IMG/VR virus record: IMGVR_UViG_3300013426_000016
Span: 64,001-128,000 of that record
Strand: one strand, 5' to 3'
From: a virus
Lineage: Duplodnaviria; Caudoviricetes
DNA: 64,000 nucleotides
The translations under genes and the position numbers were made by a program. The notes under the pieces were generated by a model, which was given only the letters and a program-made list of their open reading frames with translations, ran no database searches and was not told the DNA's origin. Of this stretch, positions 2 through 64,000 are shown piece by piece; position 1 is the first letter of the stretch, and each line of letters starts with the position of its first letter.

Positions 2-3000
2 AAGGAACAATGATTTAATGAAGATGGAGATTTAGTAACGATTCTAGTACAAGAAGATATTAATAGTGCTTTAAATGCTTTGGAATCTCCTTATCACATA
101 GAAGATATACAAGATGCTGTAGAGAATGCTTTGATGGCAAATCGCTGTTTTAGTGTTGCTAAAAAGTATATTTTGTATAGAGAGAAACATGCACAAATAA
201 GAAAAGAGGTTGAGAAAAATTTACAATTTATAAATAAATTTATTTCTTCAGATAACACTGCAAATGCTACTATAGACGATAATTCTAATGTTAGTAATCA
301 TAATATTGCTGTTTTAAATGCTGAAATACATAAAGAAAATAATCAAAATACAAATTATAGACTTTTAGAGGATACTATAAAACAACTATATCCAGATTTT
401 GATTACAAACAATTTATAAAAGATTGTAATTCAATTTGTTATGTACATGATTCAAGTTCTCAAATTGGAATGCCTTATTGTGTCGCTATTACTATGTATC
501 CTTTTCTTACAGAGGGTATTAAAAAACTTGGAGGACTTTCCGCAAAACCAGAATCCCTAGAAAGTTTTTGTGGAATATTTATAAATATGGTTTTTGCTAT
601 AGCGTCTCAATATAAAGGTGCTGTTGCAACGCCGGGTTTTCTTTTATGTATGGATTGGTTTTGTAGGCAAGAATGGGGAGATGATTATATTTATCATTTA
701 GATAAAGTTGTTTCTTTAGGAAAGAAAAATCGTACTATTGAGTCTCAAATTGTTCAATATTTTCAACAAATAACATTCAGTATCAACCAACCCGCATCGG
801 CACGCGGAGGGCAATCAGTTTTCTGGAATTGTTCGATCTTTGATAAAGAATTTTATAATACAATGTATGGAGATTTCTTTTTTCCAGATGGAACTGCTCC
901 AGTTTGGGAAACCTTTAATTGGTTGCAAAAAAAGTATTTGCATTGGCTCAACCAAGAGCGTTTAAAAACTCTTTTAACATTTCCAGTAGTTTCTGTAGCT
1001 TTAATTTATAGGAATAATCAATTTGTAGACCAAGAGTTATTTGAATATGCCTGTCAAGAGTATTCTGAAGGAAATTCATTCTTTACATATATAAATGATT
1101 CTCCGGAAAGCTTAAGTTCATGCTGCTTTTCAAAAGACCAAAAGATTTTATGGAAATCTTCAACATCTGGAGTTCATTTAACTACCTTCGAAGAATTTAA
1201 AAATCTTCCATATAGTGGAAATAAAGAAAATTTTAAAATATTTCATAATGGAAGTTGGGTAAAAGGAAAATTTGTAGAACTTCCAAATAGAAAAATGTAT
1301 GAAGTTACTACATTTAATAATAAGAAAATTGTTGTAACAGATAATCATCTTAATCCAACTCTAAGAGGTGATATTCCAACTTCTGAATTAACGATAAATG
1401 ATTATTTACTTTTTAATCAACAGCCTACAAATGCAATTTCTGAAAACGATGAACACTTAACATACGAACAGGGGTTTGTAATTGGAACGTTTTTAGGAGA
1501 TGGAAATTTTGGTTCTGAGCAAAATGGAGTAATTTATGATATTAATCTCTCTTTAAATTTGGAAAAGCATAAAAAATGCATGGAAATGTTGGATATTGCA
1601 AACCAACAAGTGGGTGGGCAAAATAAGCCATATCTTGCTTCTATATATAATAATGTTTATCCAGTTAGACTTTCTTCTAAAGAATTAGTAGCATTTATTA
1701 CAAAATGGACTAATTGGAAAAGAGGGACTTATGCTTTTAATAAAGAACTAAATCTTAATTGTTTGTTACAATCTCTTGATTTTAGAAAAGGTATTTTAGA
1801 TGGGTGGTACGCTACGGATGGAGGAAATTCAAATCGTTGTTATACAACTTCTCCAAAACTTGCAGAATGTATGGAGGTATTAATTACTTCTCTTGGACTT
1901 AATTCAATTATTGATATTTCAGATCGTACTGACGAAGCGGTTATTATTAGAGGGGAAGTGTATAAACGAAATTATCCTTTATATTGTGTTCGTTGGTACG
2001 AACCTGCAAATCATCGCAAAAATAAGGATACTGAGAATTCTTGGATTAAAAAGAATAATTCTATTTACTTTAAAATCAAGGATATACATGAAATAGAATA
2101 TTCTGAAAATGTATATTGTTTTGAATGCAGTGAACAAGAGCCTTATTTTACTCTTCCGAATGGTATAATTACTCATAACTGTCGTCTTTCTTCTAAAATT
2201 TCAAAACCACAATTTAATTTTACAAATGGACAAATAGGGGAAATGACTGGTAGTCAGAACGTTATAACACTCAACTTAAATAGAATCGTTCAAGATTGGT
2301 ATAATACATTAGATACTGAAATCGCATTTAAAGAGAAGAGAGGGAAACCTTCTCCACATTTTATTGGAAGTCTCTTAATTACTGACAGAGAGTATCAAGA
2401 AAATTTACAAACTTATCTGATTGAAATTCTAGAAAGAATTTATAAATACCAAACAGCATATAATACATGTCTTAAACGCCTTTTGGAAGCAGGTCTATTA
2501 ACTACTTATACAGCAGGATTTATCGATCTTAAAAAACAATATTTAACTATAGGTATTAATGGATTAAATCAAGGTGCGGAATTTCTTGGATATCAATGCA
2601 ATAAAAATGAAGCTTATAAAAGATTTTGTAATTTAATTTTTGGAACTATTAAAGAACAAAATCAACTCCATAAATCTAAGTCATTGATGTTCAATACAGA
2701 ATTTACACCGTAAATGAACGTGCGGTGTATAAACCTTTCTTAATTGACTCGAAACTCCCTAGTGGACAACGAGGCGCAAGCAGGAGAATTCCGTGCAGCG
2801 TGAGAGACTAAATAGAAAGGACGTAGAAATACGTATGTAATAGTCCGAACTCTATGGTAACATAGAGAGTTAATTAGAAATAATTAACCGTCTAATATAT
2901 AAAACATTAAAATTTATTTTGATTTTTCCTGGAGAATCGTTATATTTGTATATAAATAAATTTATATAAATATGATCGATGTTTCAAAATTAAATGGATT

Positions 3001-5452
3001 AAAATTAATTAAAAGTACGAGAATGGAAATGCCTAAGAACGCAACGTGTTGTGTTTGCGGTGCAACTAGACAAGAAGGAAGATTTCGAAGATTTAATGAA
3101 TATTGTATGTGTGAAAAGCATTTTATGCAAATGATTAATTATGAGAAGATTACCGATCCATCAAAACGTGTCCATAAAAAATCTAAAGAAGAATTAACTT
3201 GTTGTATTTGTGATAACCCTAAAATGGGATGTATTGATGGTAAACCTTATTGTAGAAGGCACTATATTCAAATGAGTAGGAAAGGAGAAGTTAGCGAAAC
3301 CATTTATTCTCCAAATGAGTGAATAGATTGTGGAGATTATTATGAATGCATTTTAAAAGATAAAAATGCAAAGGAAATTGCTCGTACTAAGATTGATAAA
3401 GAAGATAAAGGAAAATTTAAAAATTATAAATTGTATGCAAGGCATCAAAAAGATAAGATGTATGCCCACATTTCAGTACTAGGAACTGGACGTAAAATTG
3501 CCGTGCATAGATTTTTAATGGGACTTGGAGATGCTAAATATACAATAGATCAAGTTGTAGATCATATAAACGGAGATTCCCTAGATAATCGAAAATCTAA
3601 CCTCCGTATATGTACACAACATCAAAATGCACAAAATTTAAGGAAGAAAGGAAAAGTTGTAGGAGTTAAATTTATTAAAAAATATAACGGTAGTAACTTT
3701 TCTAAATTTTCAGCTGTTATTATGCATAATTATAAATCTATTCATTTAGGATATTTCAATACCAAGGCAGAGGCCGTATTAGCACGAATTTCATATGAAA
3801 GAAAGATTTGTGGAGAATATGGTCCGAATAGAGATTTGTTTTATATATTAGATCAGCTCTCTCCTTTGAAGGAACTTAAAAAAATGTTCCCCGAGAGCGT
3901 GTAACAGAATGGCGAATCAGCTTCGATTAAGCTTTATAATCGAGATAAAAAAGATGGATATTGGATTCCAGAAGATACAAATCTTTATGCGAGCTATATC
4001 TATAAACCAAATGACCAAAATATTTCTATTTTGGATAAAATTTATCTTCATGGTAAAGACTTTTGTGGAGATAATTTGGATGGTGGTTCTGCTGCTCATC
4101 TAAACCTCGATTCCCACTTGACAAAAGAACAGTATAAAAAGCTTTTAACTTACGCAGGAGATGTTGGATGTAAATATTTAACATTTAATGTGCCTAATTC
4201 AGAATGTCAAGACTGTGGTTTTATAACGAAAATTCCAATTACAAAATGTCCACATTGTGGTAGTACCAAAATTGACTACTACGATAGAGTGATCGGGTAA
4301 AATGTTAATTGCCCCCATTGTAGGTGACTACAATGGAAAACGCCGAATTTGCTGGAAACCCCTAAGAGCCCATTTGCCTATATGGAGAGAAATCAGAAAC
4401 AAGTAATGGGATGGTTCATGATGTAAGTCTAAAAACAGATATAATGGGAAATCAGCAGACACTATTAAAAATAGGACTAAAATATTTGTGTATTCGCACA
4501 AAATTTTATATATTTATATAGGGTTTCAACGACTACCAAGGCGCACCATAAGTGGTGAAGGTATAGTCTATTCCTATGTTTTATTTTTAATATGTTAATG
4601 TATGAAAGAAATTAAAAAATGTGATGTATGTGGAGTTTTATCTACATATAAAAGAATTAAGTATGTAACTGAAGCTAATAAGGGTTTGTGTGATAAACAC
4701 CGTATGCAATTTTCGAATCATGGTAAATTTTTTGACACCAATTCACGTGGAGTATTCGATTTAAATGAAGTGCGTGTTTTTGAAGATTATGCAGAAATAG
4801 ACACATATGATCAGTATGGTAATATAGTTACTACTTTTAAAATAGATTTAGATAATATTGATTTAGCAAAATCCAGAAAATGAAGAACAGTTTTTAAAAG
4901 AGACAAGCCTTATTTATTTTCAGGAAACCAACATAAGGAACGAGTTTATTTCCATCGATTAATTGTTGATTGTGGAGATATGCAAGTTGATCATATTTCA
5001 GGAGACACCTCCGATAATAGAAAATCAAACCTACGACTTGTTACAATCCAAAATAATATGAAAAATTTACAAAAGAAATGTAATAATAAATCTGGAATAC
5101 GAGGGGTTTCTTTTGACACAAAAAGACAAGTTTGAAAAGTTGATTTCTCATATGAAAAGAAGCGAATTTATCCGCATTCATTTCATAAAAAGGAAGAGGC
5201 AGTCTACTGTAGATATTTACTTGAAAAAACCTTATTAAAAGAATATAGAAACACTTCTAATGATTCTGAATATGAAAAATATATAAAAATGTTATCCGAA
5301 TCTCAAAAACACGACATACAAGAACATGTTAAAGATAAAATAGCGAAAGCTAAGGTATAAAAGATTTAACTAAAATAAAAAATTGGAGTGCTGGAAGACA
5401 ACAAGAGCAAAAAACCAGAGTTTACTCACATATAACAGAAGAAATTAAATAA
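2..5452 (+). CDS. nrdD: Anaerobic (class III) ribonucleotide reductase, 5'-partial; exons <2-2711, 3912-4298, 5364-5452; contains an intein
   Basis: Splicing gives ...NTEFTP-C-ESASIKLY...CQDCG...CPHCGS...DRVIG-Y-LTKIKNWSAGRQ..., i.e. Zn ribbon plus glycyl-radical motif RVIGY; SSC/CRL active-site loop restored after intein removal. Frame stays open to the window start through one TGA at 11-13. Confidence 0.95.
1124..2179 (+). mobile_element. Intein (352 aa) with LAGLIDADG homing endonuclease in NrdD
   Basis: Begins CFSKDQKILW, ends ITHN followed by Cys+1; LAGLIDADG-like blocks GFVIGTFLGDG and GILDGWYATDGG; removal restores SLSSC-CRL. Confidence 0.93.
2918..2948 (+). promoter_or_regulatory. 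Bacteroidota-type sigma promoter inside intron 1
   Basis: TTTG (2918-2921), 19 nt spacer, TATATTTG (2941-2948) matches -33 TTTG / -7 TAnnTTTG; 23 nt upstream of the HNH ATG. Confidence 0.7.
2972..3904 (+). CDS. Intron-encoded HNH homing endonuclease, 310 aa (two CxxC..CxxH fingers, HNH, AP2-like tail)
   Basis: ORFs 2972-3322 and 3431-3904 are in one frame across TGA 3320-3322; VDHINGDSLDNRKSNLR and IHLGYFNTKAEA motifs. Confidence 0.9.
4299..5363 (+). mobile_element. Group I intron 2 of nrdD (1065 nt), HNH-encoding
   Basis: Exon GGGT / intron GCCC P1; TTGCTGGAAA, AATCAGCAG, TTCAACGACTA and TATAGTCT core elements; terminal G; T|AT restores the Tyr of RVIGY. Confidence 0.92.
4602..5360 (+). 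CDS. Intron-encoded HNH-AP2 homing endonuclease, 252 aa
   Basis: Reads through TGA 4881 and 5133 to TAA 5358-5360; VDHISGDTSDNRKSNLR; GIRGVSFDTKRQV(W)KV AP2-like motif with TGA at the conserved Trp. Confidence 0.9.
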
Positions 5453-6341: not shown

Positions 6342-6717
6342 AAAGTATATAAGAGTTGGTAATATCGAAGCGAGGAATCCTACTTATTTAGATGATAGAG
6401 AAACTAAAGATATTGATATAGTATGCTGGGAACCAAATTCTTATTATGGTAAAGAAGATGAGTACCTTTGGGATGAGGATGGTATAGCACATCCTAGAAA
6501 TAGACCTTATATTTATATTTACCCAAGCTGTTTTAAAAATCCAGAGACTTGCTATACAGTAGCTACTTTTATATATAATGAAAAGGAACCTTGTTATAAT
6601 TTGACTTATACGGGATTTAGACCATTTGAGCTTTCAGAAAAAGATGCACAAGACTTTTCATATATACTAAAATACTTGTATAAAGTACTTAAATACGAAT
6701 TAAAAGAGGATGATTAA
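6328..6717 (+). CDS. Hypothetical protein, about 129 aa
   Basis: Overlaps both neighbours in operon fashion. Confidence 0.75.
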   Translation: MNMFKKYIRVGNIEARNPTYLDDRETKDIDIVCWEPNSYYGKEDEYLWDEDGIAHPRNRPYIYIYPSCFKNPETCYTVATFIYNEKEPCYNLTYTGFRPFELSEKDAQDFSYILKYLYKVLKYELKEDD

Positions 6718-7198
6718 ATATGTAGATACAATGGTTACTTTTAGAGAGATCCCAGATGAGATTTCTCTTTGTATAAGTATTTCTGGATGTCCAGGCCATT
6801 GTAAAAATTGTCACTCACCATATTTAGCACAAGATATAGGAGAGATTCTTAACAAAGAGTCTCTCCTTTCTCTTATAAAGCAGAATGCAGGAATTACTTG
6901 TGTTGTCTTTATGGGAGGAGATCAGGCTCCTAATAGTATTTCTTGACTTGCTAAATGTGTAAAAGAAGATTACCCAGATTTAAAAGTGGGTTGGTATTCT
7001 GGAAAAGAAAATCTTTCTTCAGAAATAGATTTAAATTATTTTGATTATATAAAAATAGGACCATATAAAGAAGAGTTGGGAGGTCTTGATAAACCTACTA
7101 CTAATCAGCGTTTATATGCCTATAATCCCGCTTATTCAGATTTTACAATAGATAAAAGTTGGAAAGATATAACTTATAAATTTTGAAAAAATGATTAA
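6710..7198 (+). CDS. nrdG: Anaerobic RNR activating radical-SAM protein, 162 aa
   Basis: EIPDEISL, CPGHCKNCHS (CxxxCxxC), FMGGD, DYIKIGPY, TTNQRLY; reads through TGA 6944 and 7184 (DITYKF-W-K) to TAA 7196-7198. Confidence 0.93.
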
Positions 7199-13635: not shown

Positions 13636-13837
13636 TTATAGTCTTTATGGTATAGAATTAGACTTGCCAACTAATGCTACAAGAGAGCAACAAATAAATG
13701 CTCTCTTGACTGCTTTTGGTGGACCACAACTCTTACTTGATCATTTTATAAGGCATTTTCGAGTTATAGAAGATTTTATACCAGACATAGAACTTACAGC
13801 TGATGTGAAAGAAACTCTCCCAGAAACTACCGAATAA
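13619..13837 (+). CDS. Hypothetical protein, 72 aa
   Basis: Operon-packed ORF. Confidence 0.6.
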   Translation: MKVLINYSLYGIELDLPTNATREQQINALLTAFGGPQLLLDHFIRHFRVIEDFIPDIELTADVKETLPETTE

Positions 13838-14513
13838 TACTCCGTATATAGCATTTGCTGGATTAAAGAACTCTGGAAAAGATACTGCCGCAGAAATGCT
13901 CTGTTACTGTTTAAATACACCTAAGTTTATGCATAATTATTATATGTATAAAACATTTAAGTGAGTAAAAGGAAAGTATAAAATAGTAGCATTTGCAAAA
14001 CCCATGAAGGAAATGCTTGCTATACTTTTAAATGTGCCAGTAAATAAATTTGAGGATAGGAAGTTTAAAGATTCTACTTATATTTATTTTCCAGAATTGA
14101 GAATCGAGAAAAATCCTCCTTATGAACAAGTTCTATCACAAAATGTTTTTAATAGACTTCTTGTAAGTAAGGATTACACCTTCCTTAAATGTATGTATAT
14201 TTCTATACGACAGTTAATGCAGTGTTTTGCTACAGATATAATGCGCTCAGTATTCGGAGATAAATTATGGATTTTGTCTACACTTAAAAGAAATAATTTA
14301 ATTATTTCTGATCTCAGATTTAAAGTAGAACTAGATGAAATCCATAAACAAAATGGTAAAATCATATATATAAAACGAGACTCCTGCGTTTCAGATAATC
14401 ACGCAAGTGAACAAGAAGTTCTTACTTTATATGCTAATAATGAATTTGACTACGTTATAGAAAATAATAAATCTTTAAAAGATTTGTTTAAATCTGTAAC
14501 TGAACTTATATAA
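13803..14513 (+). CDS. Deoxynucleoside monophosphate kinase (T4 gp1-like), 236 aa
   Basis: P-loop IAFAGLKNSGKDT lies upstream of and in frame with ORF 14004 across TGA 13962 (also TGA 13806); AFAKPMK, IISDLRF, HASE motifs. Confidence 0.88.
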
Positions 14514-14558
14514 AAATAGGCCTCTAGCAGTTTTCACTGTTAGGGGCCTTATTTTTTT
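14512..14558. terminator. Bidirectional intrinsic terminator between convergent modules
   Basis: aaaaataggcctctagcag-ttttca-ctgttaggggccttattttttt: hairpin flanked by A and T tracts. Confidence 0.85.
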
Positions 14559-17500
14559 AGTCGTTAAGGGTTTTTGCAATACCTTGGAAGTCTCTAAACA
14601 TACCAACGTTTTGAGTTACCCAGTAAGCAATATTAGATTTACCAAACATTAAATTTGTAGTTGATTTTATAAGTCTTTGCGCATTAGAAATTAAAGGAGG
14701 ATCTTGTCCAAATTGTCCAAGAATATTATTTAATTGAGAATCTTGCATAGCTCCAGTAAGAACAGCATATGCTAAATTCTCCATTGGTCCTTTATCTCGC
14801 ATAGCTAATCTTACTTTTTCCCAATTAACACCAGGATTTTCTACATCTGCGGATTGTCCAAAGATAGTATTTACAATCATTAACATAAATAATGTCACCC
14901 ACATATCATTAAAACAAAGTTTTAACATAGCACGAGTAGTTGGATTTGACCACATTTTATTTATATCTTCTTGATTCCAAGTTAATACAGCTTTCGCAAA
15001 TTTAAGGGATGCTTGTAACATACCTTGGAAAGGCAATTGATCATAATCGAAATAAAGTCTGCACTTCTCTTTTTCTTCTTCAGAAAGAGCATTAAATTCA
15101 CTTTCCAAAATGATATCTTTATGTGCTATACCATTATCGTCTTCATAAAAACGTACATATAAAGGTTTGCCATTTTTATCATATTGTTGATTTAATGTAG
15201 CAATATTATATTTACCTTCATGTATAGTTCATTGTTCCACCTTTGCAGTAAGGAATGTTTTATATTGAAGGAAAAGAGAACCAATAAAAGTATTACATAA
15301 TAAAGATTTAGATTCTTCATCATAGTGTCCATATAAATAGTCAGCATAGTTTTTAATACCTTCTGCTTCTTGTCTTGTATATGCCTGAGGTAGATTTTCT
15401 ACTTCGGTTAAACTATATTTAGAACCATCTGCTTTTCGGAAACCTTCTCGATTTAAATCTTCTATCATTTTCTGATAAAGAGAAAGTTCTTTAAGATATT
15501 CTGGACTAGACTTGTCACCTTTTACTAAATGTTTAAAACGAGCATCTTTTTTAATATCATATTGAAGAGTACCATTCTCATCTACAGAGTGAGCTTCCCA
15601 ACTTCCATCTCCCATCATTTTAGCAACAAGTAAAGACATACGATGCAAGAAATCAGGAGAAGTAGTACCTAACATTAAAGTATCCATTCCCCAGTGATTT
15701 ATATGTAACCAATTAAGTCTTCTTTGATTAGCTACCTGATTAAGAGATTGGTTTGCCATGCCATAAATAGCATTTAATTGCTGAAGCATACTTACACCAG
15801 AAGTATTTTTATGTGCTGTCTGAATAACATATTCTACAGCTTTCTTATAAGAATCCCAAGTAATTCCTGGATATAATTCTACTCCAGCTCTTGTAAGTCC
15901 TGTAATAGTACCTTGTAGAGTTTCTCGTAGGAAAGATTTAACATTTAAAGCAAGATTTACTTTAGAAAAACCTGATTTAAATACGTCTAAAAATTTAGCA
16001 ACTTGTTGTACAGGTTCTGGAATTATAGATTCACCATAAAATTTACTCTTAACTATATCATCAAAACGCTTTCTAATATTTGCCATATCTACAGTACTAA
16101 CTGTAGAACCCTTGGCATCAAGCATTTCCAAAGTAGTTTTTAAACCAGCTATAATAGGTACATATGTTTTACTTACATTAGAACGACAGAAAGCTACTAA
16201 AGAAGCGTTCATTACTAACTCCAGATCAGTTTCAAATAAACCATACCCATACTCATCTAAGCGAGATTGTCTTGCAGCTAAATTATCAAATTTAAGTTTA
16301 TTATACAGCTCTTGCTTTGTTGCAACGTAACCAGAAATACTATGTTCCGTAGGTTCAACACCCATAAACAAACCCTCTGTTAGAGTAAGATTTTCTTTCC
16401 ATTTATTTTTAGTTGTTTGCCACAAACCTAAATTTTTAACTTGTCTAGAGAATTTTGCTTCAAGTAAAGGAATTGCATAATAATCATCCATTAATTTAGC
16501 TTTTGCAAAATCTTCTTCTGTTTTAAGCTCCGGGTGTCTTAATTTAGCCATAGTTTTCAAGAAAGCATCTAACGCTTCTCTTGCTATTGGATCACCATCA
16601 AAATCAGAGGAATTTGGATCCTTTAAAATAAGGTTCTCTCGATCTGCAAACCAAGTTCTAAATACACTTTCTCCAGTACCATGAGTTTCATATAATTTCT
16701 GAAATTTAATCTGAACATCACGTCCAATTTCATAGACTTGTTTACGAACTTCCTTGGCATAATCTTCAATTACTTTACCAAGTTCTCGTATATTTACAGA
16801 AGAAGATAACGAAGGAGACTTAATCATTAAACCATTTAACTCGTAAATACGTCCTTTTTCAAAGTAATCGGGACGGTCTAACTCAGTTTTAACAGTATAA
16901 CCCAAAAGAGAGTTCAAGCCCTCTCTAAGCTTTACGTAAGCATTCCATATAGGGGTATTTTGATAACCTCTTCCTGAGAAAGGATTTATGTGATATTTTT
17001 GTTCTATAAGATTTATTCTATTCTTAAACCATTCTACAGAAGCATAATCATCATTATTTCCCTTCCCCCCATTCTCAATTACTTGACAAACATTCTCATC
17101 TGTTTCTTTAGCACTTTCGATTAAAGATTCTGCATCAGACATAAATAAAGTAGGATCTACTTTAGTAAGTCCACAAGTAGGATTCTCTTCTACTAAAGCA
17201 TCGAAATTATAAATTAAATCAGAGTTAAGAGCAGGCATTTCTATACCTAACCAAGGATTTACAACTTTGATTTCTGAGATTTTATAATTTTTAAATAATT
17301 CTGGATGCAAAGCGACATAAGACATTGCTTTCATCATTTCTACATTTCCAGCTAAAGCAGGAAGTACTCTTTGTCCTGCTTCCATATCAGAACGAGTTCT
17401 ACCAAGTAAGGAGGTTCCTTTCCATAATTTAGGTACACCCTTTTCCTTTTTAAAGTCAAAATCAGAAAGTTGCATTCTAAGTGCATCAAAAGAAAGCCAT

Positions 17501-19188
17501 ATAAGGGCAGATTTATTTCCTTTTGTAAATCTAAATAGACCTATGGAGTTGGCCGCTTCATCTTCTTGGAAAGTCCAGCTTTCTTGTAAATAAGGTCTAA
17601 AGGTTTCTTCTACAAAGTTTTTAGTATCATCTCTAAAAAGAGAAGTTAAAACAGAAATAGGATCACCTTGTTGTATAGATTTAATAGCAGCTGCTACATC
17701 TAATCGCTTAGTAGTTTGTAAAGAACCTTGTTGGCTAATAAGTTCTTGTAACTTAGTATCTAATTCACTTTCTTCACAATATGTTTTAGGCTGACCGAAT
17801 AAAGAAATACGATATTTAACTTTCCCTTCTTCATATTTAGGCTCTCCAGAAGTCAATTTGTGTACTAAACGATCTTGCTTTTTATAATATTCCACTTTAG
17901 TACGAAGATCCTCACCTCTAGCAATTACAGAGTTTTTTGGAAAAAATGCATCATTAGCCTTGGCTATTTTTTGTATGTCATCTGCTGTGAGTTCTACTTT
18001 TGGTTTAAACCAGGTTTTTACAGTAGAGGCAACTTCACCTCCTTTTAATCTACCTGGATTAGTAATAATGTCTTCAGCAATGTAGTTTACTTGTATGCTA
18101 TCTACTCCAGTTACTTCAAAAGGATCATCTTGATTTTCATATTTTAAATTTAACTTTATAGGTAAAATATTCGTATCAGATACAGGAATATCGTATTGCT
18201 CTACCATATTTCTATACATCTCCGTCTGATAAGAAGCAGCTAATTTCTTAGTAGATACCCATAATTTCTTCTCTTGAACTGCTTTATTTCCAGTGATTTG
18301 TCACCACTCTAATGTATTTTCTCCTTCGGGAGCAATACTCTTTCTTGATACCTTATAATCATATATATGACCTTTACCAAACTTGTCCACTACAAGTAAA
18401 TCTATTATACCATTAAAAGAGTCTAAATGTGCCCCCTCCAAAATAGTTTGAGCAATAGAAGATAAATTTTTAGACTTAATAGCCAACTCTGGATAAAAAG
18501 TACATTCTGGATACAAAGTCATTAGATGTTTTTTAAACTTAGTAGCTTGTTCTACTACAGAGTTAAATACATTATCAGGTAAAGTTTTGTTTACAGGAGC
18601 TTCTCCTTTAAAAACTTTTTCCATAATACTATGCACTTCTGTACCAAGTTCTGTTAATTTTGGCCAAGAAGCCTCTTCCATATCTAATACATTTTCAGCA
18701 GAAACTCCTTTCTTTTGCATAAACTCTTCTACTTTTAAACCTGTAGGAGTAGTTTTAGAAGAGGAAATATTTGGATCATTAAGTTCCGCTATAGTTGTTC
18801 TCTTGTATTCTGCCATATCCATAGGTGAAACACAAACATCTCCATTATGAAGATTAAGTGTTGTAATAGCTCGAGTAGTACCTATAGAACCAGGAATTAC
18901 TTTAATTTTATCCAAATCTTCCCCTCCTTCAAAAGGAGCACCATGATTAGGTTTATCTATAATAATTTGGTTACTAGTTATATCCGCTGTAATATTATCT
19001 ATCTTCTCTTTAATTTCTTCAGAAACAGATAAAAATTTTACAGTTCCTTTATTTTTATCTACCAATATCTGGTCTAAATTATTTAGGAGAAAAGAGTCTA
19101 GATTAGTATCTAGACCCTCTCCTAAATCAACTTGTTTTCCATTTAAGGTCAAACTTCATTTACAGTTTTCTCTTAAAATTTTATCCAT
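14557..19188 (-). CDS. Large virion cargo protein, 1543 aa, with N-terminal PD-(D/E)XK nuclease domain
   Basis: ATG 19188 overlaps the vRNAP stop; ORFs join across TGA near 19156, 18301 and 15229; GTEVHSIME...GIIDLLVV...IYDYKVS...YQTEMY motifs. Confidence 0.85.
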
Positions 19189-28100: not shown

Positions 28101-28234
28101 ACAGTATTCAGAGCAACTTCGGGATCAGTGAACGCTTTTGCGAACTCTTCTCCCAATCTTTCTGGATCGTTTTTATATGCTTCATATAAAGCATAAGCAC
28201 GAATAAAAAGTTTGTCAGAATATTTACACTGCAT
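19181..28234 (-). CDS. Virion-packaged DNA-dependent RNA polymerase, 3017 aa, with C-terminal zincin-like motif
   Basis: Three ORFs join across TGA 24884 and 22352; catalytic GSDYDIDK (about 22543-22567), GARIPTQ, ADNAKD, SQDG; HELSH...EEEVL near the C-terminus. Confidence 0.92.
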
Positions 28235-36730: not shown

Positions 36731-36731
36731 A

Positions 36732-43310: not shown

Positions 43311-43322
43311 ATTTCTAAAACT

Positions 43323-43356
43323 AAAAAAGGAGGAGCGGCTTTTAACCACCCCTCCT
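43323..43356 (-). terminator. Intrinsic terminator
   Basis: Minus strand aggaggggtggtt-aa-aagccgctcctcct followed by a T run, just after the 99-aa gene. Confidence 0.8.
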
Positions 43357-43662: not shown

Positions 43663-43715
43663 AATTATTTAAATTTTATATATATAAAAAATGATCTTAT
43701 TCACATCTATTCGCA

Positions 43716-43747
43716 CAAATATAATAATAAAAAAATAATTTTCCAAA
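43716..43747 (-). promoter_or_regulatory. Bacteroidota-type promoter for the 99-aa gene
   Basis: Minus strand TTTG, 20 nt, TATATTTG. Confidence 0.7.
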
Positions 43748-43779
43748 TATCTAGCATATAAGCAAAAGGGTAATTATTT

Positions 43780-44632: not shown

Positions 44633-45412
44633 TTATTCCATAGGGAACTCCTTTTGCTCATTATAACGATTTCTATTAAGAGCAGCTTCTCTTTCCAAAG
44701 CAGCAATTCTACGTTTTAAATCTTGATTCTCATTTTTAATTTCCTCTATATCATCGGTATTCTTCGATACTTGTTCAGTAACTGCTTTCACCCATAAAGC
44801 AGCTTGTTGCAAGCCAGTAAGGTTAAAATTTTTCTGAATTACTGGAAGTCCAGCTTCATCTGTTTTCTCAGTAACTTCCTCTGCAAGAAGCCCCTTCTCG
44901 ATTAATATTGTATTAAATTTTTTAATTGTAGGAACAGATCATCCTGTTAACTCTGAAATCTTTGTATTGGAGAAAGAAATTTTACCAACCCCACTGTCTT
45001 TATCATATAAATATCTTTGTATATCCATATAATATTCTTTAACATTAATTGGTAAATCCAAATCTAAAAATGCGTCTGTAAACATTTCAAAGTGTTTGTC
45101 AAAATTGGAATTATTAAATTCATAAAACCAGGATAGTTTCCCCGTAGCAGGAATTGGTTTTTTAAAAACTTTAATAAAACCAGCTTGAACGAGGCGTTTT
45201 ATTGCTTCTTCTACTTTAGTTTGTCCACAACCAGCTTTTTGTTTAATTTTTGAAATGGAAGGATAACAAACCCGTGTTTCTTCATTCATATATCTCCGGA
45301 TTGCGGCATATACTACTTTATCTCCATGTTGCAAAATTCTTTCTGGATTTTCATTGTCCATAATTAAAAATTTTTTATCATCAAAAGTATGAGGGATTTC
45401 TGTATGCTTCAT
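44633..45412 (-). CDS. Putative replication initiator / DNA-binding protein, tandem winged HTH plus coiled coil, 259 aa
   Basis: CYPSISKIKQKAGCGQTKVEEAIKRLVQAGFI; second HTH SNTKISELTG(W)SVPTIKKFNTILIEKGLL spans TGA 44939; ends TAA 44633; adjacent to iterons. Confidence 0.75.
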
Positions 45413-50400: not shown

Positions 50401-51946
50401 GCCCTAAAGTAGTAGGAATTCTTTCTTGTCTTACAAAGAAATACCCTTTTACTTTATATTCTTTTAAGAGTTCTTGTATTTCATTAGAAATGGAAAGCTC
50501 ATAATAAAGAGGTTGTACTTTACTATTAGTATAATCAAATATTGTAGCGTCCGGGTTCTTAAATACTCCAAAAGTATTATCTAAGAATTTGCCTTTATTT
50601 AGAAAGTCATCGCGAGTTAAATAATTCATTTTAACTTCAGAAGCATCTATTAAAGAAAGTGCATTATTTGTATACTTGTAATACTTTAAGGTAGAGAGAT
50701 CTTTATAGACTTTATCTGCTTCTAAAGTAAGCGCTTTAGTACAACCTTTATCAGAATAAAATTTATTTTCTTTATAATATCCAAAGTAATCTCCTTTAAG
50801 TTCAGTATCCTCTCTATCTGTAAAGTTATCGTCATTTATAGCAGAAAACTCACATCCTCTAAGATTAAATACAGAACTTAAAGAATCATCATTCATCACA
50901 AATACTACTCCAAGTCTATATATTTCATTTGGTCAGTAACCAAGTTTATAATAGATGTTATTTGGACTGTAATATTCAGTTTGGTAGTTATTTGCACTAG
51001 AAACACTATAATCATCTGGAGAAACTCAACCTATATTAGATTCTTGCTTAAGTGCTACTTTTATATAGTATGCTATATTTTGTAAATCCTTTATATTGTA
51101 GGTAACACCTTGCACATTTCCAAGAAATAGCATATTCTGAACTTGAGCTTGAGTCTTAGCAGCTGTTACTAAATTATATTTAATATTAAGTTCTTCTACG
51201 GAAATGTCAGTGATTTCCTCATAACCATTTAAAGTTATAGTTTCTACGTCATTCTTAATATCATATGGCTTTGTGAACATTCCTGCTTTAGTAAGCCTAA
51301 TTCCATTTGTATCACTAGTTTCTCTTACAAAATAAAGATAGAACTTAGAAAAAGAGGTATCTATATTACTAATTTTTAAAGTAATTGCTTTATCTGTAAG
51401 TTCATTCAGTAAAGTTCCAGATACAGAAGTTACTTTATCTAAATACCCTTTAAAAATGGCTACTTGTCCAGACTCGCATACTATATCTGTTTTATTGTAA
51501 TCATTATCTGCAAACTTTATATAAAAGGTATAATTACCGCCTTTTAATTTTCCGTAATTAGAAACATCATTTAAATCTATCCTTGGTATTTTATTTATAT
51601 TTCTAAATAGTCTTGTTTGACGATCTATTTTACCTTTTTTATATAAGTTGGTTTGCTCTAATTGATTCCTATTTATGACTTTATATCTATTATCTTCTAT
51701 TTTAGTAAACCTTGTATTAATGATTCTTGGTGGATTCTTATCATCATTTAAAATAAGATTCACTGTACCATCATAAGAAGGTTGACATTCTATATTAAGA
51801 GGGTTATTTAAATCTATATCCAGCTCTTTAGTTCTAAACTCCACTATTTGATTGTTTTCGTCTACTTGATTAAAAAGAGCGTGATACTCGTTTGCTAAAT
51901 CCCCTTCTTGTTTATTTGCTTTTATATTAAGTTGTATATTAGCCAT
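47432..51946 (-). CDS. Large tail protein (crAss muzzle / tail stabilization-like), 1504 aa
   Basis: Five ORFs join across TGA at 51026, about 50933, 49526, 48695 and 47837; LGY(W)PNEIYRLGVVF, VFRGDCY, C-terminal RDKYVKIRVKY. Confidence 0.82.
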
Positions 51947-54900
51947 TTAAATAAAAGTCTTTTTCTGTAAATCCTATTCTCTGTCTTAAAATTCCAACAA
52001 CGCCGTTATCAGTTAATTGTCCTCTTGCATAAACTTCTTCAGTATTACTTAAAGTGCCAGCATTTAAACGGGTAATAAGAGTATCGTTTACATCATAATC
52101 GCCTTTATAATAAAAATCTGACTGAGGAGTAATTATTCCTGCTCCATATACATCAGACTGATACTTAGCAACTTCCGTAGCAACAAGCTGTTTTCTACCT
52201 TCTTTTTCTCCTGTAGTAGTAGGTGTATTATCTATGGTTTTTTGCAGTGCAGCAAATGCAGAATCCTTCCCAGAAAAATCGAGAGTAAATTTAACCACGG
52301 CATCTTTAGTGTTAAAATCGACACTATCTAAAGAAGTATAGTCTGAAGTACTATTTGCACCCACTTTTAAATTAGGAGTATTATATAAAGTATTTCTATC
52401 AGAAGGACTTAAGAGATTTTTACTGTTATATGTAAATGTAGTAAAATTAATTTTCCCATTTCCATATAAAGATGCACCGTCACTTACTTTAGTAGAAGAG
52501 CCTTTAATAGTATAAAATCCACCTACAGTTTCTGAAGCATAATCACTTGTTACATGTTTAACGCTGTTTATCCAAGTAGTAAATATATTTTTGGCTACAG
52601 TTTCATTCTTTACAACAGCTCCGGTTTTTCGTATATTAATTAGGCCTATGTCATTTCCATGCTTAACTCCTACAAAATAAATACACTGAGTATCTGTACC
52701 TGCATTTTTTCATACGTAAGCTTTGTTATCTGGATCACTACTCTGAGAAGGAGTTTCTACACCAATAAAAGCATAGTTAGTGTTTCCTCCCTTATTAAAA
52801 GTACTAACAGATAAAGCGAGAAGGAACACATCGTCTGTTTTTAATGCAGAAGTTAGTGCTTGTAAAATACTAGGAGTTAGTATATTACTAGTTTTACTAC
52901 TTCCTTCAAATCCAAATCCTTTCCAAACTCCACTTGTATAACCAGGAATCTCAGAAAAATAAAGATGTATTTCTCCACCTTTAGCATTTTTAGAAGCATC
53001 ACACCATCCACTTACATCTAAGCTATAAGTAGAATAAGTAAGACTCTCTTCTACATAACTTCATATAGAAGCACTTTTAATTACAGGTTCTAAATCGTAA
53101 TGAATAGTTTTATTTCCCGTAACACTCAAATCGCCAAAAGTAATACTGCTAGTAAGAGTTCCAGAGTATTTAGAGAAAGTAGTTGTTTTAGAAGTATCGT
53201 TTATATCAACTTCCATTTTAGCTCCAGAAACAAGATTTTCCCACATAGGCCCTGTAAGAAGTTTAACTTCACTAGATGCCGTAACATCCATTTTACAAGA
53301 TGCGTTGCAGTATAAATCAAATCCGTTTTCTATTTTTTCTACATTTCCGTCTACACCATCTGTCATAAAGGTATTATAAACACCATTATTTCCTTTAGGA
53401 CTCTTTATATTAGAATTAGACATTCAAGCAGTATAACCAGGAGTAACTTGTACCTCTCCATAATCTACTTCGCTCTGAGGTATTCCATTTAACTTTAATT
53501 GCTTGTTTTGTATTAAAGTTTGGTAATTACCCATCCATTGATCAAATGAGATTTCATCATATCGGGAATCAGTAAATCCCTCCATTACCTTAGATGCCAC
53601 TATAAACTTAGTAAAAGTAGCTAAAACTTCAGCAGAATCACTCCAAGTAGAATTTCCTATAATATCAAACTTAATAATATAAAAATCTTCTGGAAATAAT
53701 GCTTTTGGATTACTTGTAACATTATCACTTGTATAAGGCACATAAGGAACAGAGAGATTAGTTTCTCCAACTAAATTTCATTCTTCACACTTTATGTGCT
53801 TATATGCAACTTTACTTGCATTTGTAGCATAATCATTTGGGGCACTTAATTTACTAATAGAGTAATACATATAAATCTCTGAAGTAAGTGCGGCATTCTT
53901 AGAAATGCCTTGTGTATCAAACATTATATCAAGTGTAGAATCTCCAAGATTATACCACCAAGAGCTGTTTCCTATTTTTATGTCTTCAATATTTCCTTTA
54001 GCATTTAAGGAATATTTATAGGATTTATTTAAATTATCGTAATAAACTATAGAAGTAGTCTCTCCAATTTTATAAGTCAAATAAGGCTCTATTTTTATTT
54101 CTACATTTTTATCTTTAACTAAATAAGAAGATAAATCGATTACATCTGAGAAATATAAACAGTTGCCGTTTTTTAAATCAAGTTTATTTGGTACTGAGGC
54201 ATTTAAAGTATTGGAAGTCTCTCCTACAGTTATAGTTATCTTCGCTTTCAGATCATTTGTGGTAGAATTTAAAATAAGCGGGTCATTAACCGTATACTGA
54301 ACACTTACTTTAAAAATAGGACTTCCTGCATAAGTAGGAACCACAAATTGCTTAACATTTAAGTCCATACTCTCCACTCTTGCAAATACAGGTTGTAAAG
54401 CTAACCAACCAGGAACATCCCATTCCACATAAGCAAAAGTATCTGAAGTATGATTTGCATTTTTTATTTTATCTGTAACATCGTAAGATTTACGATTTTC
54501 ATCTAAAACATAAAATTTAAGAGTTTCATATTTAGATGCTCCAGATAAAGAGGTAATCCAATTAGAGAGTTTATATTTATCTCCAGGATTTATTTTTAAT
54601 TTATTTGGATCTTTTCCGTAGAAAACCTTCATGTCTTGTAGGTTCTCTACTATATATGAATAATTAAGAGTATTTCCTGTTGCGCTATCTATAGATGTCT
54701 GTATAGCATCTAAAGAAATACTTTCATCTAGGTCACTAGAAGTAATAGTCTTAGGAGCAGGATAAGAACCTATTTCTGTTTCAGTAGTAAGAGGATTATA
54801 AGAAACTATATATAAAATATCTCCATATTCTTTTATTCCTACTGGTATAAAATTCTTTTCTAGTTTACAATTAGCTAAAGGATAATTCCCTTTATCATTT

Positions 54901-55037
54901 TGTAAACTATGCTCATTTCCGTCATAAGTAATAATAGTTCCATTAACACAGTCTGTCAATACTGTATTTGGAGTACTTACTGGATTTAAGTCCATCACCA
55001 ACCCTTCCGACCAAGTATTAGTCGCTTCTTTTTTCAT
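51939..55037 (-). CDS. Tail protein, 1032 aa, with tail-stabilization-like N-terminus
   Basis: Joins across TGA 53778, 53424, 53061 and 52710; NTWSEGLVMDLNP...LQNDKGN...EIGSYP start. Confidence 0.78.
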
Positions 55038-55588
55038 TAATCGCTAAGTATTTTTAATTTACTGTTTTCCTTTCGTAGAGCATATAAGTCGAAATTACGG
55101 GTTTCATAATTTTCTTCTCGAAAATAAAGACCTCTATCCTCCTTAACTTTTAATCTGAAAATATATTTATTCTTTTTTCTAATTAATGTTTCATGGATGA
55201 TCTTATAACAGTCTATTCTATCAAACTTAATTTTTTCTTTTTGTCTTCCAGATTTTTTCTCTGTAAAATACTTTTGGTACTCTTCTTCACTTAACCCAAA
55301 ATAATAATACCCATCTCAAATAGTTCTGCTAAAAAGATACTGTATTCTATATTTAATATGTTTCTTTATGTCACGGTATGTCCAATAGTCTTCATCTTTA
55401 CTAAATATTCTTCCTATATAAGCAGAAAAGGGAATTCTATGTGCAGCAAGTAGCACATCTCCTCCTCGATTAGAGACCTTAATTAATTCATTAAATCCGT
55501 ATGTACAAATCTTTTTAATATCACTTAATTCCAACTCTGGAAAAGCTATTTTTAATTTATCATAATAATCTTCTAAATATTTAATCAT
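55037..55588 (-). CDS. IHF/HU-like protein, 183 aa
   Basis: Reads through TGA 55316 to a TAA coupled to the next ATG; helical HU-like N-terminus; syntenic with crAss IHF-like genes. Confidence 0.6.
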
Positions 55589-56037
55589 TAGTAATAAGTT
55601 TTTCCTGCATTAACATTATCTATAAACATCTTTTTATATGGCTTAGTTAAGTGTATAGTTTTTCATTTTGTTCTTCCTCCTCCATATCACTCTAATACTA
55701 AGTCATATGCTACAAAATTAGTAGCCAATAAATCAATATCTTTAAATCTACCTCTTTTACAGTATAACTGTAATTCTTCTCCCACAAAAGGCTTTACATA
55801 TATTTGTGCTTTTCTAAAAGCTTTCGTAGGTAAGGCAAAAGTAACATTATTTTGGATAATATCCAAGCATATTAAATATATACAATATGTAAATACAAGT
55901 CCACAATAAACTTTTCTTTTATTTGAACCATACTCTTTTTCTAAAGTTTTTGCTTTAATTTTTAACTGCTTTACATTAAAATTATCAAATAGTTCTTTGG
56001 ATGAAAAAGAAAAACTGTTATAAGATCTTCCTACCAT
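55588..56037 (-). CDS. IHF-like conserved crAss protein, 149 aa
   Basis: Reads through two TGA to a TAA coupled to the next ATG; basic; ends GKTYY. Confidence 0.6.
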
Positions 56038-57399: not shown

Positions 57400-57401
57400 A
57401 T

Positions 57402-57443
57402 AAAAAGAAAAAGGACGAGCGAGATCGGCTCTCACTCGCCCTT
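57402..57443 (-). terminator. Intrinsic terminator
   Basis: Minus strand aagggcgagtgaga-gccga-tctcgctcgtcctt followed by T tracts. Confidence 0.8.
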
Positions 57444-58488: not shown

Positions 58489-58513
58489 GATAATTTTCTA
58501 TTTTTAAAGTTAT

Positions 58514-59563: not shown

Positions 59564-59576
59564 ATTAAATATTTAT

Positions 59577-60431: not shown

Positions 60432-60468
60432 AATTTTCTCTCTTTTTTAACTAAAATCTATATAATTT

Positions 60469-60499
60469 AAAAACTACTCCCCAAATAAAGGGGAGTAGT
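60469..60499 (-). terminator. Intrinsic terminator after MCP
   Basis: Perfect 10-bp stem actactcccc/ggggagtagt followed by TTTT on the minus strand. Confidence 0.8.
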
Positions 60500-60517
60500 A
60501 TATGTTATTTTTTCTTT

Positions 60518-63500
60518 CTACTTAAAGAAAGAATCACGTGTCTCTGAACCCATCATGATCACTGATCTATATGGGTTAAACACAGCCACGCTTGCATAGC
60601 CCCAGTCAATGTATTTAACGCCAGCTACAGGAGAGGAAACAACTCCTCCTTGGAGTCCTGTAGCTCCACCTCATTTTACATTTTAATTATTTCTAATTAA
60701 ATCAGACTATATCTTTATCCTATATTCTATTACCGTCTATAGGACATTTCCCGTTTCCATCATTTAGATGTACTCTACTCCATTACTTCTTTTAAGATTT
60801 GCTTAAAAGTACTGTTTCGATAGTCGTTGAACTTTCGGTAGAGCTTCGTAATACGCTTGCATATCCTACCGCTTAGCTGCTGATTATCCAATCTTTAACA
60901 TTTTCACCTTTTAGGTAGTTAAAGCTATAAGGAACTCCCAGCAATTAGAGAAATTATTTTTTCTTAGTATTACTACTAAGTGGCGCAAGTGGTTTAGTTT
61001 ACGCCATTTACAATGTTCTGGATCAAATCTCCACCCTTAAAGGTGAAGTAACCGAGTGCAGGACGGCCCGTAGCTGCATCAGCAGTAAGGTCGATGATTG
61101 CACCAAACGCACGGTTAGGGAACTCTACATCAAAGCTCCTATCAAGCTTAACAAGAAGTGTGTTCTTTATTATTAACTATAATTATTTCTAATTATACTA
61201 GACTATATCTTTAACTTTCTTCTTTTACCGTTGAAAGTCATTTCCTGTTTCCATTATTAAAAAATGTACTCTACTGATTCTTTTTTAATATTTCTTTAAA
61301 AAAGAAATTTTCGATAGTCGTTGAACTTTCCCCACGTATAAAAGATACAGAGGGGCTTAGCTGCTGATTGACCAATCTTTATAATTTTTAAGCATTCACA
61401 CCTAATGTTTCCATTTATGTTATAGCTTATAAAGCTTAAGGTTTTTCCAGCAATTAAGGAAATTTATTATAAATAGATTTCTCTATTTAGGTGGCAACAC
61501 ATTTTACCACCATACTCGTAAGCAGAATACGTAGCTCCGAGCTTAATGTAGCCATTCTTTTCTTTAGAGTACAGGAAGGCGTTGTCAGACTTGTGCTCTA
61601 CAACCCACTTACCCATTACACTCTGCCACTGATTATAGAAGAAAGTGTTGCACATTAAAATGTACGTATTCCCTTGTGCCTTCTCAGACTTAGCGGACAT
61701 GGCCATAAGAGCCTTCTCAAAATAATCAATGGTAAGTTTGTTAAATACAAACTTGGTAGCGAAACGCTCTACCTGCGGTATTACCAATTTGTTAATATAG
61801 CATTGTTTATATGCTATTTCTTATACTTTTATTCGCATAAGATCAGACTATATCTTCACCTATATAGGTGACTCTTGTTCGTGAAGTTATATTATTCTTC
61901 TGGAGACATTAGTTTATATTCAAACTCGGGAAGTATATAAGGCCTTAATAAAGAAGACCATTTTCTACCTTCTCTAGTTCTACATTTTAAATAATATCTA
62001 ATTTCTCCTTTTTTATTTAGTTTTTTAATCGGATAAAAATTTATATCATATTTCTCTTTAAAGAAATCTATAATATTTTGGGTGTCTTCTGGATTAGTCA
62101 TAGTATAAAAATAGAAAGAATGAGAACGGATTTTTTTAGTTCCTTTATAATAGTCTTTTGCATGACTACCATCATCCATCCATCATAGAGCAATTGCTTC
62201 TGGAGTTAAATAGTTTAGCATTTTTCTACTAAACCTCTTTTCTCCACTTTTATATATCCATTTATATAATATTCTAAAATACCTATGCCCTTTACTTATT
62301 TTATAGGTATCTTTTTTTATTCTATGATATATACTTGGAAGTTTTCCACCTAATAAGGTAACAAGTAAGTTAGCCTTATATTCAAGGTAACTTTTTTGCT
62401 TACTTCCATGCTCTATTTCTAAAGCAACACCACTGTGAGCATTTAAATGCCCATCTCCTAAAATTAATCCAATTAAAAGTGCTTTTTTTCGTTTATCCAT
62501 ATAAAATGATAGTAATTACAATAATATAACTCTAGTCGTTACACCTTCCTTATATAAGGCTTGGCTCGGTATTCTCATCGCAGAGTTCACCGAATTAAAG
62601 AGTTTTTGCATAACTGATTTCTCAGTTAAGCGGCATAAAGTTTACCGTCCGTAGAAATGAGCGGCCTACCAATCTCGTCATAGCGTTAGACTATATCTTA
62701 TTCTATAAAGACTGTATATCTGATGTATTTCCATAAAAATATCTTCATCTTAAATTCTTACAAGTTTTACTTTTACCTTCTATAACATTATAAATAGGCC
62801 CCGGAGTTATATTCATATACTCAGCAGCTTCTTTAACATTTGTAAAAGATTTTATAAACTTGCCTTCTAAAGTATAAGATGCACAAGCTGTATTTTTCTT
62901 AGAGGCTCTTAAAGCAAATCTTTTCTTATAACTTCAAAAATAACCTCCAGCCTGTATTTGTTTATCCACACAAACTGCAAATATAGATTTATATGAAATG
63001 CCAGTTTGTCTGTCAGCCTCATGTAAAGACTTGTAATAAGTTATATAATTTCCTTGTAAATCAAACTGATAAACAACTTTTTCTCTGTTTTTACAAGGAG
63101 ATATGCTTTCAGTACTTCCCGTGAAAAACCTTCACTGAAAATCTTTGCATTTCCTTTCTTTTAAGCAAGCATCTCCAATACCACTTTTAGAAATACCTGT
63201 TTCTCTGGAAGCTTCGGAAATAGAGTTTCAAGTTTTTATAAAGTTACCTTCCAAATCATACTGATTAACTTGTTTTTCACTTACAGAAGAAGGAACTTTT
63301 CCTCCTAAACAACTATTATAAACATCTTTTCTCTTTATAAATTCTCTATTTACCAATTCGGCTTCTTTCTTATATGCTGCTATTTTACCCTTCTCTGTAC
63401 CAGGAAATTCATATAAAGTTTCCCTTACAAAATTATTTATTCCATATTTAATAACAGCTTTCTGAAAAACAGTAGAGTGTTTTTGCTTTAAATCTCCTTT

Positions 63501-64000
63501 ACAGGAAATTCCACAGCCTATATAACCATCGAAATCATCAGAAAGAGTACCGTGTACTCCTATATATATTTTACCATTTATGGTATTTGTTGTCTTGTAT
63601 ACTATATATTTTAGCATTAGATCTGAACTTTTAGTCGTTGAACATTTTCCTCTATGAGGAACCTTTGCTGCTGATTATCTAAATATTATTTTTTTCAGAC
63701 TTTCACACTTACTAAAAAGTTATGTTGTAGTAAATAATATATAAAGAACTCCCAGCAATTTGAACAGTTTTTAACTATACATTACTGCATAGAAAGACCT
63801 ATGATTGATCTTGGGCTTCCCGTCAGCCGAAACGTTGCCCTTACCCCAGGTAAGAGAATTGTTACGAGCTTCCATGAAGTTGTCAAGACAATCCTTTTCA
63901 GCAGGATTCATCTTGTAAACATGATCAGTAGATTCGTTACCTTTACCTATCTTAATGAAAACATCTTCCATACCAGCGTACTTAGCAGACATATCCACAT
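60518..64000 (-). CDS. Major capsid protein, 5'-partial; exons >64000-63808, 62683-62644, 61784-61506, 61164-61001, 60671-60518
   Basis: Spliced product ...DGKPKI-YDEIGRPLISTDG-VIPQVERF...AYEYGG-NTLLVKLDR...NIVNGV-GGATG...RDSFFK* is continuous; exon phases add up; biased codons; position at the head of the structural module. Confidence 0.88.
60672..61000 (-). mobile_element. Group I intron D of MCP (329 nt, ORF-less)
   Basis: P1 TGGCGT/GCGCCA; AATTGCTGG, AATCAGCAGC, TTCAACGACTA, AAGATATAGTCT; terminal G. Confidence 0.9.
61165..61505 (-). mobile_element. Group I intron C of MCP (341 nt, ORF-less)
   Basis: P1 GGTGGT/GCCACC; same core elements; P7.1/7.2-type insertion (IA-like); terminal G. 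Confidence 0.9.
61785..62643 (-). mobile_element. Group I intron B of MCP (859 nt), LAGLIDADG-encoding
   Basis: P1 CGGT/GCCG; GTAACGACTA, P8 CACCTATATAGGTG, AAGATATAGTCT; ORF enclosed by the GAGTTATATTATT/AATAATATAACTT stem. Confidence 0.9.
61892..62500 (-). CDS. Intron-encoded LAGLIDADG homing endonuclease, 202 aa
   Basis: LIGLILGDG and AIAL(W)WMDDGS, with TGA 62183 at the conserved Trp. Confidence 0.9.
62684..63807 (-). mobile_element. Group I intron A of MCP (1124 nt), GIY-YIG-encoding
   Basis: P1 AAGAT/GTCTT, P10 CATAG/CTATG; AATTGCTGG, AATCAGCAGC, TTCAACGACTA, AAGATATAGTCTAACG end. Confidence 0.88.
62703..63617 (-). CDS. Intron-encoded GIY-YIG homing endonuclease with three NUMOD1-like repeats, 304 aa
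   Basis: IVYKTTNTINGKIYIGVH; repeats VNQYDLEGNFIKT, VYQFDLQGNYITY, ASYTLEGKFIKS; four in-frame TGA; TAG at 62703. Confidence 0.88.

Follow-up and report, generated by a model that had tools for sequence, protein, structure and literature searches.

How a phage whose reading frames are repeatedly interrupted by TGA makes full-length proteins is the question raised by a 64,000-nucleotide stretch of DNA (hereafter, the window) of the Caudoviricetes record IMGVR_UViG_3300013426_000016. The window corresponds to bases 64001-128000 of this single IMG/VR record of 203,856 bp; plain coordinates refer to the window and all others are marked 'contig'. A first-pass annotation had proposed that TGA is read as tryptophan throughout the window. 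The present analysis makes it very likely that the window belongs to a crAss-like gut phage of about 157 kb that uses its own tRNA(UCA) to read UGA as Trp and is probably a member of the Zeta group. This phage occupies the recoded core of the record, which has a GC content of 31% and lies between two direct repeats (see below); whole related genomes are 161-188 kb long.

Genes were called as the longest open reading frames (ORFs) under genetic code table 4. Table 11 divides the window into many ORFs that table 4 fuses without frameshift, giving among others proteins of 1548, 3017, 2835, 1578, 1504 and 1032 amino acids (aa). This call yields 42 raw in-frame TGAs in 21 of the 45 window ORFs. About five of the 42 are doubtful, since they either fall in one of two antisense ORFs that are probably spurious or precede a likely start codon. 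The number of credible TGAs is thus about 37, close to the approximately 38 of the first-pass annotation. As it had also stated, fragments are joined without any frameshift (none for 37 interruptions) and every restored gene closes on TAA or TAG: the terminators of the 45 ORFs are TAA in 38 cases, TAG in seven and TGA in none. Beyond the stop that closes table-11 ORFs of at least 80 aa, the frame stays open in the window for a median of 92 codons when this stop is TGA, versus 8 for TAA and 6 for TAG, which indicates that the TGA interruptions did not arise by chance. Metabolic and virion modules are both concerned, as had been claimed, TGA making up 18% of the Trp codons in the plus-strand arm and 17% in the minus-strand arm; over the whole core phage, it represents about a fifth of them. 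The relative G038, which uses the standard code, harbors single table-11 ORFs of 1547, 3300, 1568 and 1128 aa versus 1548, 3017, 1504 and 1032 aa here, and the homologue of the 1504-aa protein in MT835470 is one standard-code ORF of 1594 aa. These uninterrupted ORFs indicate that the fused ORFs are real genes.

The residue inserted at TGA was deduced from alignments with 80 IMG/VR loci, two GenBank relatives, 30 NrdG loci and four whole genomes. The IMG/VR loci were retrieved with an alignment-based query, the 1504-aa protein used as a single-sequence query having found no related locus. Among the 775 cells aligned with a TGA in 86 related loci or genomes, 423 are TGG and only three encode Gly, while Cys is among no listed residues. 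As the translation of TGA as W could bias such alignments, the comparison was repeated with an X at every TGA. With this masked query, W occupies 376 of 757 cells (49.7%) compared with 0.93% elsewhere, an enrichment of the kind anticipated by the first-pass annotation, and outnumbers every other residue in 10 of the 20 columns having at least two homologues. Three residues of the 1504-aa virion protein (W338, W807 and W1084) are encoded by TGA here and by TGG in 82-85 of about 85 relatives. As read from these columns, TGA is a Trp codon in the recoded core.

No tRNA is detected in the window by ARAGORN, in agreement with the first-pass annotation. In the rest of the record, a tRNA(UCA) is found 25.4 kb upstream of the window, at contig 38494-38568 (ARAGORN; Rfam RF00005, 64 bits). 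It is a 75-nt canonical cloverleaf whose anticodon loop (CUUCAAA) and G73 resemble those of the tRNA-Trp(CCA) found in relatives. No RF-1, PCRF or tryptophanyl-tRNA synthetase (TrpRS) domain is found across the whole contig. The tRNA gene is carried by a plus-strand block (contig 26.6-42.4 kb) that contains two in-frame TGA and 57 TGG, and a second plus-strand block (contig 176.2-182.65 kb) contains one TGA and 42 TGG (binomial P of 1e-6 and 1e-5, respectively). These two TGA-poor blocks adjoin on a circular map of the contig, and their 41 genes all terminate with TAA or TAG. TGA being absent as a stop and nearly absent as a sense codon, both blocks would be read in the same way under either code. 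Among the products of the first block are a GMP-reductase-like and a PcfJ-like protein, a GroEL-like chaperonin and many small proteins; a DUF5662 gene also lies within the TGA-poor blocks. The replication block (contig 42.5-63.9 kb) contains 45 TGA and 37 TGG, TGA thus amounting to 55% of its Trp codons.

From these data, the following scheme can be proposed. The code-neutral plus-strand block (about 40 genes), including the tRNA(UCA) gene, could be translated before the tRNA accumulates. The tRNA(UCA), presumably charged by the host TrpRS, would then compete with the host release factor 2 (RF2) for UGA. The downstream genes, about 45% of which contain an in-frame TGA, would depend on this tRNA; they comprise the replication genes and, in the window, both the arm for nucleotide metabolism and the entire virion arm. 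We infer the timing of expression, the charging by the host TrpRS and the standard code of the host. It had been argued that suppression must act early: replication and metabolism genes do depend on the tRNA, but the code-neutral block that bears it can precede them.

The genes of the window, and the positions of their TGAs, are as follows.

1-14.5 kb, + strand: plus arm, with nrdD, two HNH endonucleases, an NrdG-like activase, an RNA ligase, PNKP, ThyX and a deoxynucleoside monophosphate (dNMP) kinase
− strand: minus arm, which holds the genes for giant and virion proteins, the two group I introns, and the LAGLIDADG and NUMOD1 endonucleases
2..2713, + strand: nrdD exon 1, from a gene whose start lies 80 nt before the window (Pfam NRDD, ATP-cone and Intein_splicing)
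2972..3904, + strand: HNH homing endonuclease in nrdD intervening sequence 1 (Pfam HNH_3); TGA at 3320
4031..4300, + strand: nrdD exon 2, a Zn ribbon ending in ...YYDRVIG, 71% identical to a contiguous C-terminal part of G038 NrdD
4602..5360, + strand: HNH/AP2-type endonuclease in nrdD intervening sequence 2 (Pfam HNH_3); TGAs at 4881 and 5133
~5363-5450, + strand: nrdD exon 3, reading LTKIKNWSAGRQ, which matches G038
6710..7198, + strand: NrdG-like radical-SAM activase (Pfam Fer4_12); TGAs at 6944 and 7184
13803..14513, + strand: dNMP kinase (Pfam DNMK, 4.8e-17); TGA at 13962, with a second one at 13806 should translation begin at the first ATG
14557..19203, − strand: 1548-aa virion-module protein, whose G038 homologue is one 1547-aa ORF; TGAs at 19156, 18301 and 15229
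19181..28234, − strand: 3017-aa giant protein, whose G038 homologue is one 3300-aa table-11 ORF; TGAs at 24884 and 22352, both crossed by alignments
28250..36757, − strand: 2835-aa giant protein; TGAs at 36011, 30245 and 29087
38613..43349, − strand: 1578-aa protein, a table-4 ORF; TGA at 39999
43435-43761 and 57137-57403: probably spurious antisense ORFs, which hold some of the doubtful TGAs
44633..45412, − strand: HTH_36 'Rep-like' protein (Pfam HTH_36, 7e-16); TGA at 44939, followed by 101 open codons
47432..51946, − strand: 1504-aa virion structural protein (PHROG); TGAs at 51026, 50933, 49526, 48695 and 47837
51939..55037, − strand: 1032-aa protein; TGAs at 53778, 53424, 53061 and 52710
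55037..56037, − strand: a pair of small virion-module genes, encoding 183 and 149 aa; TGAs at 55316, 55687 and 55663
60683-61010 and 61179-61515, − strand: two group I introns (Rfam RF00028, 73.6 and 75.2 bits)
61892..62500, − strand: LAGLIDADG homing endonuclease (Pfam LAGLIDADG_2, 2e-25); TGA at 62183
62703..63617, − strand: NUMOD1 homing endonuclease (Pfam NUMOD1); TGAs at 63228, 63132, 62934 and 62745, and no TGG

Four motifs in which TGA had been proposed to occupy a conserved Trp position can be compared with homologues. In NrdG, the TGA of DITYKF(TGA)K (residue 159) corresponds to W in 25 of 25 relatives, and in 15 of 15 when the query is masked. That of RQV(TGA)KV in the HNH/AP2-type endonuclease (residue 178) corresponds to W in the three homologues out of three. 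In the LAGLIDADG endonuclease, the TGA of AIAL(TGA)WMDDG is aligned with the W of I-SceI YWFMDDG. The TGA columns of the NUMOD1 endonuclease hold W, F or Y in homologues, with two W and two F for GGYF(TGA)SY. Elsewhere in the virion module, W is found at the column of residue 91 of the small gene pair in 63 of 81 relatives (Y in 17 of 81) and at that of residue 249 of the 2835-aa protein in 20 of 41. In G038, the latter protein is divided between the contig ends (587 and 2511 aa). For the 1578-aa protein, 13 related loci were matched but none covers the TGA, and the alignment of the 1032-aa protein with the 1128-aa ORF of G038 is restricted to the N-terminus. PHROGs give no match for most of the giant proteins.

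As had been stated, nrdD, nrdG, the dNMP kinase gene and the HTH_36 'Rep-like' gene each require read-through. The single TGA of nrdD (positions 11-13) lies in the ATP-cone, and the 30 residues that precede it are homologous to the N-termini of NrdD from relatives. The nrdD gene is made of three exons separated by two HNH-bearing intervening sequences, the second of which falls in the glycyl-radical motif, between RVIG and Y; the Rfam group I intron model stays below threshold there. An intein spans approximately residues 381-726 of the window ORF, whereas the G038 homologue has none. The dNMP kinase matches its T4 counterpart (PDB 1DEK) weakly, in a region that does not cover the TGA. In nrdD, the dNMP kinase gene and the HTH_36 gene, the TGAs fall in variable columns, which support the continuity of these genes and are uninformative as to the identity of the residue. 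On the minus arm, the two group I introns adjoin the LAGLIDADG and NUMOD1 genes.

The sense TGAs also show a bias in their 3' context. In the core phage, 80 of 144 (56%) are followed by A, compared with 35% of TGG and 35.3% of all other NNA codons (z = 4.9 against the gene-specific expectation; binomial p = 8e-7). An A occupies this +4 position after 26 of the 37 sense TGAs of the window and after 49 of 97 in two other TGA-recoded relatives. No such preference for A is seen in TAG-recoded relatives, so that the effect is not general to recoded stops, and the depletion of T at +4 of TGA is not significant when compared with other NNA codons. In Escherichia coli, UGA decoding by tRNA-Trp is reported to be favoured by a 3' A, +4U being the poorest context (Engelberg-Kulka 1981; Kopelowitz 1992; both cited in PMC10540940 and PMC5289835). 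The preference observed here suggests a competition with the host RF2, and may be a general, hitherto undescribed signature of suppression competing with RF2; a mutational cause, or one linked to the neighbouring residue, would be another explanation of the bias. The four homing endonucleases of the window are enriched in TGA, with eight TGA and three TGG against 29 and 171 in the other genes (Fisher p = 5e-5). In Agate phages, an intron endonuclease has likewise been reported to be recoded.

The record itself appears to be composite. Its two ends (contig 1-24,865 and 182,701-203,856, about 46 kb together) have a GC content of 52%, and TGA is their commonest and an ordinary stop, closing 25 of 41 ORFs. 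They encode a second complete siphovirus-like phage, with a TerL, a portal, a tape measure protein, a DnaB carrying an intein and a reverse transcriptase, whose relatives are stand-alone genomes of 42-48 kb; the 31%-GC core encodes a separate TerL. The reverse transcriptase of the GC-rich phage (contig 202222-203331, − strand) is about 50% identical to those of the crAss-like G038 and G042, and its gene is one of only two flank genes that match these genomes. Compared with named phages by Megablast, the GC-rich flank gave no match, and a protein encoded in the flank close to the right junction is without relatives in IMG/VR. The core is flanked by 648-bp direct repeats that differ by one mismatch (contig 24866-25513 and 182053-182700). 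An independent IMG/VR contig that matches the left end with 99% identity breaks off exactly 77 nt inside the repeat, as is typical of a branch point in an assembly graph. A misassembly mediated by the repeat is the most likely origin of the composite record. Alternatively, the join could be real and correspond to a cointegrate formed by recombination at the 648-bp segment of the code-neutral block shared by both phages or, in a weaker form, reflect gene exchange within one host, but this is rather unlikely. Whichever the origin of the join, the two phages share recently exchanged sequence. If it were real, phages with incompatible stop usage would share a cell, and the suppressor tRNA would read through the TGA stops of the other phage, possibly leading to interference between them. 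With a misassembly as the most likely origin, the label of '204-kb jumbo phage' is doubtful.

Several other readings of the TGAs have to be weighed against decoding as Trp by the tRNA(UCA) of the phage. That they are errors, marks of pseudogenes, selenocysteine codons or, as in table 25, Gly codons has a negligible probability. The label 'SeC' given by ARAGORN to the tRNA(UCA) would fit selenocysteine, but the short variable loop and 7-bp acceptor stem of this 75-nt molecule are unlike those of tRNA-Sec. Furthermore, W is 50-fold enriched at TGA columns, where Gly and Cys are rare and unlisted, respectively, and the interruptions are free of frameshifts. The homologue columns refute these readings. 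A host that itself reads UGA as Trp (a table-4 bacterium), whose code the phage would simply share without any switch, would account for the low GC content and for the consistent W meaning, and the hosts predicted for opal-suppressing Zeta phages are of Firmicutes type (2025 Zeta paper, PMC12386605). This is nevertheless very unlikely. Two blocks are nearly devoid of in-frame TGA (3 TGA versus 99 TGG) and only about 45% of the genes contain one, compared with about 90% in phages of code-25 hosts, where TGA is a sense codon (Borges, bioRxiv 10.1101/2021.08.26.457843). A phage sharing the code of its host is also at odds with the carriage of its own tRNA(UCA), with a +4A bias that implies a contest with termination, and with sister phages that either recode TAG or use the standard code. 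Moreover, the 648-bp segment shared, with one mismatch, with a phage that ends 25 of 41 ORFs with TGA hints at a common standard-code host. The hosts predicted for the opal-suppressing Zeta phages themselves use table 11, which also counts against a table-4 host.

Finally, read-through could be deliberately inefficient, each TGA acting as an attenuator that controls dosage or yields both truncated and full-length forms. The host RF2 is presumably present and the phage encodes no RF1, the context bias indicates that decoding efficiency matters, and the homing endonucleases are strongly TGA-rich (8 TGA:3 TGG versus 29:171); a delay of this kind has been proposed for an intron endonuclease (Borges, bioRxiv 10.1101/2021.08.26.457843). 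On the other hand, TGAs are found at invariant W of giant essential virion proteins, whose truncation would be wasteful, and their location within genes does not differ significantly from that of TGG (Kolmogorov-Smirnov p = 0.10), a bias towards gene starts being unsupported. Such an attenuation appears unlikely.

Some points weigh against decoding of UGA as Trp by the phage tRNA or limit its reach. About half of the TGA columns are variable among relatives, the relatives compared all share at most 57% protein identity with this phage, and the gene calls are simple ones. The Trp identity of the tRNA(UCA) is suggested by its G73 and by the similarity of its loop, and tRNAscan cannot tell Trp from Arg for such tRNAs (2025 Zeta paper, PMC12386605). 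The label 'early' given to the TGA-poor block derives from its position and strand. More generally, TGA decoding is deduced here from nucleotide sequence.

The affiliation of the phage places this recoding among known cases. Its TerL (contig 150320-152527) matches 140 phage records; those that are listed and named are crAss-like phages of Bacteroides, Flavobacterium and Cellulophaga, with 22-45% identity, and a virion protein also matches Fpv1 and cr118_1. From repeat to repeat, the core spans 157,187 bp and contains, in the window, two group I introns, the NrdD intein, the three-exon nrdD and four homing endonucleases. Zeta crAss-like phages are 145-192 kb long and rich in introns and inteins, and include branches that read TGA as Trp, TAG as Gln or use the standard code (Yutin 2021, PMC7886860). 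Membership of the Zeta group is probable, the comparison with Zeta phages being by description. Among the relatives, G041, G042 and G032 (176-188 kb) encode a tRNA(CUA) and contain 660-800 in-frame TAGs each, about as many as CAA and CAG together, which corresponds to a TAG-to-Gln recoding near saturation; in G038, which has 25 tRNAs, the code is the standard one. The first-pass annotation had framed the extension of recoding to replication and metabolism genes as unusual, a view that does not hold. TGAs have been found within one Zeta-group PolB (Yutin 2021, PMC7886860), as well as in the TerL, RNA polymerase and helicase of Zeta phages (2025 Zeta paper, PMC12386605). In the published model, early genes are standard and late genes recoded, but recoding of replication genes is described as 'variable' and an intron endonuclease as preferentially recoded (Borges, bioRxiv 10.1101/2021.08.26.457843). 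The location of the tRNA(UCA) in a code-neutral block fits this early-standard, later-recoded model. TGA-to-Trp recoding in this phage is thus known biology of the Zeta-group crAss-like phages.

The comparison with described systems reveals both likenesses and differences. Like the Zeta phages that read TGA as Trp (PMC7886860; Lera, PMC12386605), this phage has a large genome, a high density of inteins, group I introns and homing endonucleases, TGAs at Trp positions of structural and DNA-processing genes, a tRNA(UCA), and sister branches that are TAG-recoded or standard. Unlike Lera, which has 26 tRNAs, it encodes only three (ARAGORN), without a second (CUA) suppressor, and unlike the described Zeta phages, it makes its heaviest use of TGA in the replication block and not in late genes. 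As in the code-switch phages of Borges, a standard-compatible block carries the suppressor tRNA, structural genes are recoded, and intron homing endonucleases are so preferentially. Unlike the Jade phages of the same study, this phage has no RF1/TrpRS 'code-change operon'. Its genes of replication and nucleotide metabolism are recoded too, which that study describes as 'variable'. In Mycoplasma and Spiroplasma (table 4), a tRNA whose anticodon is UCA also decodes UGA as Trp. However, that code is cellular and associated with the loss of RF2, whereas the suppressor is here borne by a virus in what is apparently a standard-code cell, and TGA-free genes and the 3'-context bias further distinguish the phage from these bacteria.

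This phage adds a well-documented case in which recoding spans replication, nucleotide metabolism and virion genes, and leaves only the code-neutral tRNA block untouched. Annotation with table 11 would fragment its largest virion genes as well as nrdD and nrdG, which makes the choice of code important whenever this record is used. It also provides two small leads, the preference for a 3' A at sense UGA and the enrichment of TGA in homing endonucleases.

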